From assembly GCA_963812135.1 (NCBI GenBank), contig CAWETU010000001.1, positions 2,306,121-2,370,120 of the forward strand: 64,000 nt of DNA, given 5' to 3'. Origin of the DNA: Vulcanimicrobiota bacterium (GTDB taxonomy: Bacteria > Vulcanimicrobiota > Vulcanimicrobiia > Eremiobacterales > Eremiobacteraceae). The position numbers were made by a program, and so were the translations under genes. Every line of letters begins with the position of its first letter. Position 1 is the stretch's first letter. The notes under the pieces were generated by a model. That model was not told the DNA's origin. It saw nothing but the letters and a program-made list of their open reading frames with translations, and ran no database searches. This document shows positions 30,316-64,000 of the stretch, one piece after another.

Positions 30316-30797
30316 CTGGTCTGATTCTTGGGAGGGTGATGGGACGCCTTGGCCTTATCGGAGTTGCCTAGGAATTGTGCTTCGACCATGGCCTCGATCA
30401 ATAAAACGTCATGAGCGTCTTCCTGCGGTCGAATAAATTCGACCGCTCCGCAGGTGCGGCGCTACGGAGCTGGCGCGGCGGATCGTACCTGACGACAACG
30501 CCGTTTCGGAAGTACACGGAAAATGCGGAGGGCGCGTGGGGTGGCATCCTTCGCCCACGCGCATTGAAGGGCAAACAAAAGAGTCAGCCACAGGCTACGA
30601 TGGCGATTGCGCGCGATCTGAGCAATATCGCCGTCCTGTAGGTCTTAGTCTGCGAAAGGCCGCGCTCACGGCGCAGCCGCGCGAAATTTGTGCCAAAGCT
30701 GCGGCGAGGATCGCTCATACGCGTAGTCTAGCCGTGTTGCGGATCGCCGGTCTTTAGACTGCGAGTCGCATTCGGAGAGTTGGGCGCCTGCGCGCGC

Positions 30798-61180: not shown

Positions 61181-61598
61181 ATTTTTAGGGGCGAGCGGCG
61201 AGCCCTGAGGCCCGCATGCCATTGCTCCCTGAAAACTGCATAACGATATACGTCACGAACGAAACTTACCAGCTTTGCCGCTTGATGATTCCAAAGAGCG
61301 AATAACTCTCCGACTTATTAGTACCGGTCAGCTGCGCGCATTACTGCGCTTCTACCTCCGGCCTATCACCTGGTGGACTACCAGGAGTCTTCACCTTGCG
61401 GATCCAGACCTTATCTTGGAGTCTGCTTCACGCTTAGATGCTTTCAGCGTTTATCAGATCCGGACGTGGCTACCCGGCTCTGCCACTGGCGTGACAACCG
61501 GTTCACTAGCGGTCCGTCCAACCCGGTCCTCTCGTACTAGGGTCAGCGCTCCTCAAGTCTGTAACGCCCACAGCGGATAGGGACCGAACTGTCTCACG

Positions 61599-61885
61599 CA
61601 TGTTCTTCCCACCATTCCTGGTGGCATAGACTATATCTTCATCCTGATTGATTTGATCAGGAGTCGGCGTGTGATGGCGGCCGTAGATTTATCGCATCGC
61701 TGCGACAGTGACCATCCATCTCAGAGCTCGCGCTCTTCAGTCGTTACGGGGTCAAGGCACGTTCTGTTCGTGCCCGACTTCCCTCGGTATTACCCCGTCA
61801 GCGTCGGTCGATGCTGACGTCGGGTTTCACCGATATAGCCGATGTACATCCTCCAATTGCTCGGAGGAGACGCAGTGTTTTCTCT
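61599..61885 (-). ncRNA. Group I intron at L2593 (IA3-like), 287 nt, no ORF
   Basis: Splits GAACGU|CGUGAGAC; P1 ACGUAG/CUGCGU with U-G; R CCGUAACGACU, S AAGAUAUAGUC; P7.1/P7.2; terminal G. Confidence 0.92.
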
Positions 61886-61969
61886 ACGTTCTGAACCCAG
61901 ATCGCGTACCGCTTTAATTGGCGAACAGCCAAACCCTTGGGACCTACTACAGCCCCAGGATGCGACGAT

Positions 61970-62004
<35 letters not shown>

Positions 62005-62005
62005 G

Positions 62006-62297
62006 CAATCTACAATCACTTGTAGCTTAGACTATACCTTCATCTCTTTCGAGATGGTGACGTGTTATGGAAGTGATAGATTTGCGTCTTGCGACGCAGC
62101 GCTTCCATCTCTCGCGCGCTGGCGAGAAGTCGTTACAGGGACCGCGCAATCCATCGTCTCGGTCGAATAAATCCGACCGCTACATTAGGATCAATGATGC
62201 GCTGGTCTTCCCTCGGTATTGCCCTTGCCGTGCAAGGGTTCCACCGATATGAGTCACTGATCGCCCACTCGATCGCTCGAGTGGCGAGCCCAAATTG
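62006..62297 (-). ncRNA. Group I intron at L2473 (IA3-like), 292 nt, no ORF
   Basis: Splits CCCAAGAGU|CCACAUCGAC; P1 GAGUC/GGCUC with U-G; AUCGGUGGAA, AAUACCGAGG, CUGUAACGACU, GGUAUAGUC; terminal G. Confidence 0.9.
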
Positions 62298-62346
<49 letters not shown>

Positions 62347-62507
62347 AAGCGATGGCTCTTCCATTCAAAACCACCGGATCACTTAGCCCGACTTTCGTCC
62401 CTGCTCGACATGTACGTCTCGCAGTTAAGCCGACTTCTGCCTATGCACTCTTACGGTTGATTTCCGACCAACCTGAGTCGACCTTTGGGCGCCTCCGTTA
62501 CTCTTTG

Positions 62508-62542
<35 letters not shown>

Positions 62543-62820
62543 CATGTCCTCCAGCCGGATCACGGCTGCTAGTTAGATTCCCGAAACCGACAGAGTGGTA
62601 TCTCAAGGTCGGCTCCATCGCACCCGAAGATGCGACTTCAGCGTCTCCCACCTATCCTGCGCAGTCAATTTCAAAAATCAAGATCAGGGTACAGTAAAGC
62701 TCCACGGGGTCTTTCCGTCCTGCTGCGGGTAACGGGCATCTTCACCCGTATTGCAACTTCGCCGAGCCCCCCATTGAGACAGTGCCCAAGTCGTTACGCC
62801 ATTCGTGCAGGTCGGAACTT

Positions 62821-63162
<342 letters not shown>

Positions 63163-63680
63163 TACCGTTATAGTTACGGCAGCCGTTTACTGGGGCTTCG
63201 ATTCAAAGCCTCGCCTTGCGGCTAACCTCTCCTCTTAACCTTCCAGCACCGGGCAGGCGTCAGCCCCTATACGTCCGCTTTCGCGTTCGCAGAGACCTGT
63301 GTTTTTGTTAAACAGTCGCTCGGGCCATTTCACTGCGACCCTTTCGCGCCGCTACAGCAAGTGCGCGTACGCTACTAGGGCACCCCTTTTCCCGAAGTTA
63401 CGGGGCTAATTTGCCGAGTTCCTTAACAGGGGTTCTCTCGTCGCCTTGGCATGCTCTGCCAGTCTACCAGTGTCGGTTTGCGGTACGGGTATCGATGACC
63501 CTTGCTAGACGCTTTTCTTGGCAGTTGAGTATCGTCCACTTCGCCGCCTTGCGTTGGCTCGTATTCACACCTCGGGCTTCGGTCTGAACCGGATCGCGGA
63601 TTTCCCTACGATCCACCCTATATGCTTGAACACCCATCCGATAGGGTGCTGGACTAACTTCCTGCGTCACGCCTTCGCTT

Positions 63681-63740
63681 CTCGATCTCGCCCCTTAGCG
63701 ATACGTCGTTTGCACGGCGTAGCGATTAAGAGGAAGATCA
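63681..63740 (-). other. About 60-nt hairpin insertion in 23S helix 54 (H54a-like)
   Basis: GAUCUU.CCUCUUA..CGCUACGCCGU-GCAA-ACGACGUA.CGC.UAAGGGG..AGAUC just before GCGAAGGCGUGACGCAGG. Confidence 0.65.
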
Positions 63741-64000
63741 AACGGGGTCGCTAGTAGCCGAGTATTAACGGCTTATCCATCGCCTACGCTTCTCAGCCTC
63801 GGCTTAGGTCCCGACTAACCCTGAGATGATAAACAGCGCCCAGGAAACCTTAGACTTACGGCGGTGGGGTTTCTCACCCCACTTAACGCTACTAATTCCG
63901 GCATTCGCACTTCTGGTTCGTCCAGGTGTCCTCGCGGTCACCCTTCAGCCTACAACAGAACGCTCCCTTACCAAATGAGATCTTGCGATCTCAAGTCCGT

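Follow-up and report, generated by a model that had tools for sequence, protein, structure and literature searches.

A 292-nt ORF-less group I intron after U2473 of a Vulcanimicrobiota 23S rRNA gene, from a widespread and likely homing family

The window, by which we mean the whole 64,000-nt stretch of DNA analysed, ends in the 3' part of a 23S rRNA gene (61297..64000, minus strand) that is interrupted in helix 89 by 292 nt, raising the questions of what this insert is, whether introns have been recorded at its site, and how it coexists with introns nearby. The upstream exon most resembles an Eremiobacterota record. The 5' part of the gene lies on contig C5, 5S follows, and two further introns occupy known sites, after U1951 (62821..63135, minus strand, 315 nt) and after U2593 (61599..61885, minus strand, 287 nt). 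One 16S copy was found in the genome, which is 98% complete, and the rRNA operon in the window therefore appears to be its only one. Genes for tRNA-Ile(GAT) and tRNA-Ala(TGC) stand on opposite strands far from this operon (G000:C1:1629078-1632209).

The insert spans 62297-62006 on the minus strand. Numbered against the 2904-nt E. coli 23S rRNA (L001), in which GATAACAGG begins at 2447 and CCCAAGAGT at 2465, the last base of the 5' exon is 2473 (62298), and the 3' exon covers 2474-2593 (62005-61886). The original prediction had placed the junction after U2473 by counting exon bases, and the alignment agrees with it exactly; the intron-free exons keep the junction at 2473, with no shift to a known site. 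A misnumbered 2449 or 2500 intron was ruled out by this alignment and by homolog loci. Two of 71 introns aligned at 2474, through a one-base slide.

We laid out P1-P9 by hand on the window copy and counted pairs in an alignment of 43 ORF-less homologs. Of the cells in this alignment 96.8% are paired, and both sides have changed in 40 of the 67 pairs, a level matched by none of 500 shuffles, and slid controls pair at 35-44%, controls that flatter the result to the extent that the structure was drawn from the window copy, itself a row of the alignment, and that the rows are kin. The P3-P4-P6-P7-P8 core with its P3/P7 pseudoknot is present, with 91-100% of its pairs kept. Covariation was found in P2, P3, P6a, P7.1, P7.2, P8 and P9; P1 and P7 are nearly invariant.

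P1 (62286..62301, minus strand) joins exon GAGU and the first intron C to a GGCUC guide (62290-62286) and sets a U2473.G wobble at the 5' splice site. Four of its five pairs are invariant over the 43 introns, all of which have the U.G pair at the splice site, and a GCTC guide lies near the 5' end in 157 of 159 complete homologs. Two L2473 introns (L041 and L073) have an apparently extended L1 and no guide of the usual kind close to the 5' end. At the other splice site, 3' exon CCA (2474-2476; 62003..62005, minus strand) is predicted to form a 3-bp P10 with UGG at 62292-62290. The P10 bases track exon base 2474, with NGG in 91 of 100 introns that have C2474 and in 13 of 57 that have U2474, a relationship confounded by kinship. 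Both pairings named in the original prediction, GAGUC/GGCUC and UGG/CCA, are present in the window sequence, and its proposal of a group I intron with a site-matched guide is borne out by the alignment, by the P1 and P10 sequences and by covariation across the 43 relatives.

The remaining helices all lie on the minus strand. A P2 hairpin with a GNRA-type loop (62265..62284) has changes on both sides in seven of eight pairs. The 5' strand of P3, P4 and a short P5 (62213..62257), placed by the hand layout and the 43-homolog alignment, are followed by P6/P6a and loop L6 (62137..62212), which is the position of a LAGLIDADG_2 gene in long homologs and is free of such an ORF in the window copy. The P7 region (62029..62133) encloses P7.1, P7.2, the 3' strand of P3, P8 and J8/7; both sides have changed in all six P7.1 pairs and in five of seven P7.2 pairs. 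P7 itself (62133-62128 with 62033-62029) has a bulged C beside a G-C pair, the arrangement of a guanosine-binding site, invariant in the 43 introns. The intron closes with a P9 hairpin and a terminal G (62006..62028, the G at 62006); P9.0 is poorly supported (65% paired), and the terminal G of the homologs, being a selection criterion, is no independent test.

Introns of subtype IA3 are distinguished by P7.1 and P7.2 between P7 and P3 and by a short P5. We call the L2473 intron IA3-like because its P7.1/P7.2 extension and short P5 match the layout given for cyanobacterial L2593 introns in PMC1995217, a call made from layout and not from a GISSD subtype-model score. As described in Table 1 of PMC6125680 and, for cyanobacterial L2593, in PMC1995217, IA3-type LSU 2593/2500 introns share with L2473 the short P5, the P7.1/P7.2 extension, an endonuclease gene in P6 and a location in domain V of 23S. 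The L2473 introns differ from them in their own guide, their helix 89 site and their cores, which are alignable with those of L2593, L2500 and L1951 introns and group apart in the core tree with moderate support (88). An origin of L2473 by transposition from L2500, hinted at by 78% similarity in one genome (G028), found no support in the protein and core trees and was rejected.

The insert folds more stably than expected (z-score -4.9, none of 100 shuffles equally stable), and its match to Rfam RF00028 is weak (22.7 bits, E 0.004; gathering score 50). That low score, together with the end of the window in a contig overlap with strain-like differences, would suit a non-spliced intervening sequence or an assembly artefact. 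We find such a reading barely credible, given that contigs C1 and C5, which overlap at the end of C1, have letter-for-letter identical copies of the insert, that the junctions recur in 70 named loci and, among the matches listed, 88 metagenome loci, and that group I core pairs are conserved or covarying. The overlap between the end of C1 and the start of C5 (G000:C5:1-2923) is 2.9 kb long and has 13 substitutions and six gaps, all of which fall within the L1951 intron and suggest that it exists as two strain alleles. The 292 nt after U2473 are a genuine group I intron.

From its structure and its place in a single operon, the window intron likely splices itself out, and with one rRNA operon found, splicing should be obligatory. 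By known group I chemistry the guide would base-pair to GAGU of the exon, and P7 would hold the free guanosine that attacks after the U2473.G pair; P10 would align the 3' exon, and ligation would restore helix 89. RNA contigs skip exactly 292 nt in all four soil metatranscriptome runs examined, of 22 listed. We rejected these skips as proof of splicing because other bacteria, with intron-less rRNA, produce an identical junction. Intron RNA had no cover in two of the runs and a depth below 12 in two, and no intron circle occurred among the RNA joints listed for the four. A genuine core might nonetheless need a host chaperone, or a maturase lost from the window copy, whose L6 has been rebuilt; a maturase role of a LAGLIDADG protein is described for a Thermotoga 23S intron in PMC3984707. 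We think such a dependence rather improbable, as 43 of the 71 complete introns (those of 70 named loci and the window's own) are ORF-less with the full core kept, and all three introns of the window gene are ORF-less by length. With high confidence, we take the insert to be a group I intron with a complete covarying core, likely self-splicing, and an endonuclease-less copy of a widespread, likely homing L2473 family.

The original suggestion that 2473 may be a new site was not refuted: no intron at 2473 was found in the literature searched, texts from PMC6125680, PMC11809585 and PMC11835236 among it, a scope outside which the CRW and GISSD site tables and the PMC11835236 database fall. The number 2473 is absent from the main, supplement and preprint texts of Tsurumaki 2024 (PMC11270868), a statement limited to text as distinct from figures, and our search found no literature on Eremiobacterota or Dormibacterota 23S introns. 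Site 2473 is probably an unrecorded but common 23S intron site. It may instead already be catalogued, in CRW, in GISSD or among the CPR sites 23IS9-11, with only the host range new. MHDB01000041, which carries an L2473 intron (L061), is among the supplementary tree labels of Tsurumaki 2024, and the positions of 23IS9-11 are not readable from its figure text (PMC11270868); those labels, however, concern frequent sites. The 2473 junction is found in none of 260 other CPR genomes, 164 of them with a 23S match, and 2473 is therefore unlikely to be a frequent numbered CPR site. Introns at 29 other CPR loci lie at 2262, 2500, 2504, 2511, ~2532, 2593, 2604 and 2656, and none at 2473, so that prior cataloguing seems to us unlikely. 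One CPR locus (L311) has a 750-nt insert near 23S position 2532, with an approximate junction; to our knowledge, a site at ~2532 is absent from intron lists.

A pattern search of GTDB for a G directly 5' of exon base 2474 matched 99 stretches. Seventy are complete introns, 22 are cut short, ending before the 5' exon, and were left out of the intron count, and seven were rejected as introns, being one-base deletions or a natural G. Because the pattern spans 2500, it misses genes with both introns. By record title, 45 of the 70 are Eremiobacterota/Vulcanimicrobiota, 12 are Dormibacterota and 13 are others, including Acidobacteriota, Omnitrophota, Bdellovibrionota, Chloroflexota and one CPR, some of which may be misbinned. 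The search of metagenomes for homologs that had been proposed with the original prediction matched at least 120 junction loci, with 88 complete introns among the matches listed. Within the host phylum, 138 of 261 genomes match the exon and 44 have the 2473 junction, all in the host's class (one of them, G250, is unpublished); the genome sets overlap, so the phylum and GTDB counts are not independent. In the phylum of G275 a break at 2473 occurs in three of 75 genomes with a match, too small a number for testing. L2473 is a widespread family and not a rarity. It resembles the CPR sites 23IS6-14 treated in Tsurumaki 2024 in its patchy mix of ORF-bearing, degenerate and ORF-less copies, there read as a homing cycle, and in its place among conserved sites of domains IV-V; it differs in being rare in CPR and common in Eremiobacterota, outside the coverage of that study (PMC11270868).

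Long L2473 introns are ~800 nt; their L6 is filled by an ORF whose end lies in the P6/P7 junction. Endonuclease-bearing homologs, which the original prediction had proposed to look for, do exist: 24 of the 70 complete GTDB introns are long and 18 of these have an intact LAGLIDADG_2 ORF, as do 29 of 37 long metagenome introns among the matches listed. All three L2473 proteins tested match PF03161 at 118-132 bits (cut-off 25). The best PDB match of an L2473 protein is I-SceI (E 3e-14, residues 29-207), and the acidic residues of both LAGLIDADG motifs align with those of I-SceI. This enzyme of yeast omega, of the same Pfam family (LAGLIDADG_2, PF03161), has its site at 2449 and an 18-bp target; the L2473 introns differ from it in their bacterial host and predicted target, and the window copy is without the ORF. 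Cyanobacterial L2593 genes, as described in PMC1995217, have one LAGLIDADG motif, whereas the L2473 family has two. In the protein tree, a branch with moderate support (78) sets the 44 distinct L2473 proteins on one side, and five L2500 proteins stand apart (99).

Judging from these sequences, long members encode a putative LAGLIDADG_2 homing endonuclease, and the family likely spreads by homing. The enzyme encoded in L6 would cleave 23S DNA that has no intron, close to 2473, and the intron would be copied in during repair. Its expression is uncertain because GTA stands at the likely start in 24 of 61 long introns (e.g., L047:1047-1100); the others have GTG (27), ATG (1) or ATA (1), and eight were not parsed. 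A GTA start may damp expression of a toxic enzyme. A phage collection gave nine distant matches, all below 30% identity, and shows no vector.

L6 of the window copy is 70 nt long, against 594 in long members. Several ORF-less members retain both ORF ends as P6 stems, which points to an origin of ORF-less members through deletion. The endonuclease gene would then have been deleted, and in the window lineage a host REP-like repeat may have settled in the tolerant loop. L6 contains a 25-nt GTAG-tagged palindrome (62160..62184, minus strand) with one difference from the genome-wide majority form. At up to three substitutions it has 142 matches in the genome (G000), two of which are the C1 and C5 copies of the L2473 intron; five shuffled queries gave no match. 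Crude ORFs, which cover 94% of the genome, contain 79 of the 142. A second copy in the window lies at 30426-30450. The repeat has the tag, palindrome and high copy number of GTAG REPs, and as in those described in PMC3733652 it runs GTAG then palindrome over 25 nt, with more than 100 dispersed copies; it differs from them in its place in an rRNA intron loop and in that no RAYT gene flanked by it was found, which is why we call it REP-like. PF01797 (RAYT) is absent from this genome, and a RAYT gene is present in one of five same-genus genomes, at a locus without such a repeat. One genome of the genus, G005, has a degenerate form at the equivalent L6 spot. The same REP-like repeat as in the window also occurs elsewhere in the 23S genes of same-genus genomes: that of G005 has it in an insertion within the exon 5' of domain IV (L102:187-210), and that of G006 inside the L1931 intron (L114:856-879).

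In favour of mobility, same-genus G001 and G006 are without the intron, and on a host tree from 1.85 kb of upstream 23S, covering 37 of 40 fetched genomes, carriers are unclustered (14 changes vs 12.7 when shuffled). Distances between introns are weakly correlated with those between hosts (Mantel test, rho 0.23, p 0.025), and some inheritance is therefore vertical.

In the host's class, the L2473 and L2500 introns, 27 nt apart, seldom occur together. Scoring 115 genomes of the class, we found 43 with L2473 only, 39 with L2500 only, 32 with neither and a single double carrier (G007), where ~15 were expected (Fisher p 8e-10); this count covers genomes among the matches listed, with 78 weaker matches outside. 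To score L2500 we used a break in the BLAST match at 2500, with direct checks limited to fetched loci. Cut or unclear genomes (G175, G177, G153, G217, G243), weaker partial matches, and G221 and G231, likely foreign at 93-94% identity, were left out, and G034, with two copies, was scored as L2500. In genus g13, counted minus G034, 22 genomes have L2473 only, 15 L2500 only, none both and four neither, with eight doubles expected. Six other genera also show the deficit (p 0.013); the genus of G007, with one scored genome, cannot enter this comparison. Carriers of the two introns are interleaved on the host tree, and in 10 independent pairs, a set that contains no double carrier, the second intron differs in the opposite direction 7.3 times and never in the same direction (median p 0.016). 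For the distant L1931 intron there is no bias of this kind (5/17, 3/11). Two observations speak against a strict exclusion and against co-conversion as its cause: 17 of the 120 metagenome loci listed have both L2473 and L2500, and L1917 and L1931, 14 nt apart, occur together in six of seven L1917 loci. L2500 introns at two CPR loci (L310 and L316) end in A, not G, which is unusual for group I introns. No literature on exclusion between adjacent introns was found in our search.

We lean slightly towards repair co-conversion as the cause of the deficit, with homing of each intron erasing its neighbour. Co-conversion is treated as a known feature of homing in PMC3984707. After a cut at one site, homology would extend for only 27 bp up to the neighbouring intron, and repair from a single-intron donor would probably remove that neighbour. 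Exon markers flanking the introns gave no signature of this, as none of 37 sites tracks intron state (lowest p 0.017). That missing marker evidence, the strong deficit within one genus (no doubles against eight expected) and the shared helix, which both introns interrupt or border, would also fit selection, in which a pair of ribozymes on either side of a 27-nt exon in helix 89 would be poor at folding or splicing and doubles would be purged. Yet double carriers do exist, in G007 and, among the matches listed, in 17 of 120 metagenome loci and nine of 51 with host-type exons, and the predicted L2473 P10 (2474-2477) and L2500 P1 (~2496-2500) occupy different bases; we therefore regard selection as possible and distinctly less probable. 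Causes other than co-conversion or splicing cost seem quite unlikely. Returning to co-conversion, we tentatively propose, as something just short of an even call, that an unreported L2473 family with its own I-SceI-like clade competes with L2500 in soil Eremiobacterota via mutual co-conversion, so that sister species flip between the two introns.

The kind of intron and its mechanism are ordinary; the exclusion pattern is the part of note. The locus adds a seemingly unrecorded 23S site, common among bacteria of a soil phylum: of the 138 sampled genomes that match 23S, 44 have it. It also yields 44 distinct I-SceI-like proteins whose new target is predictable. Near-exclusion makes it testable whether neighbouring mobile introns interfere via repair or via splicing cost, and both enzymes, single alleles and double alleles occur naturally. 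If the proposed competition is true, it would be a natural two-player gene drive contest in the peptidyl-transferase region of free-living soil bacteria.
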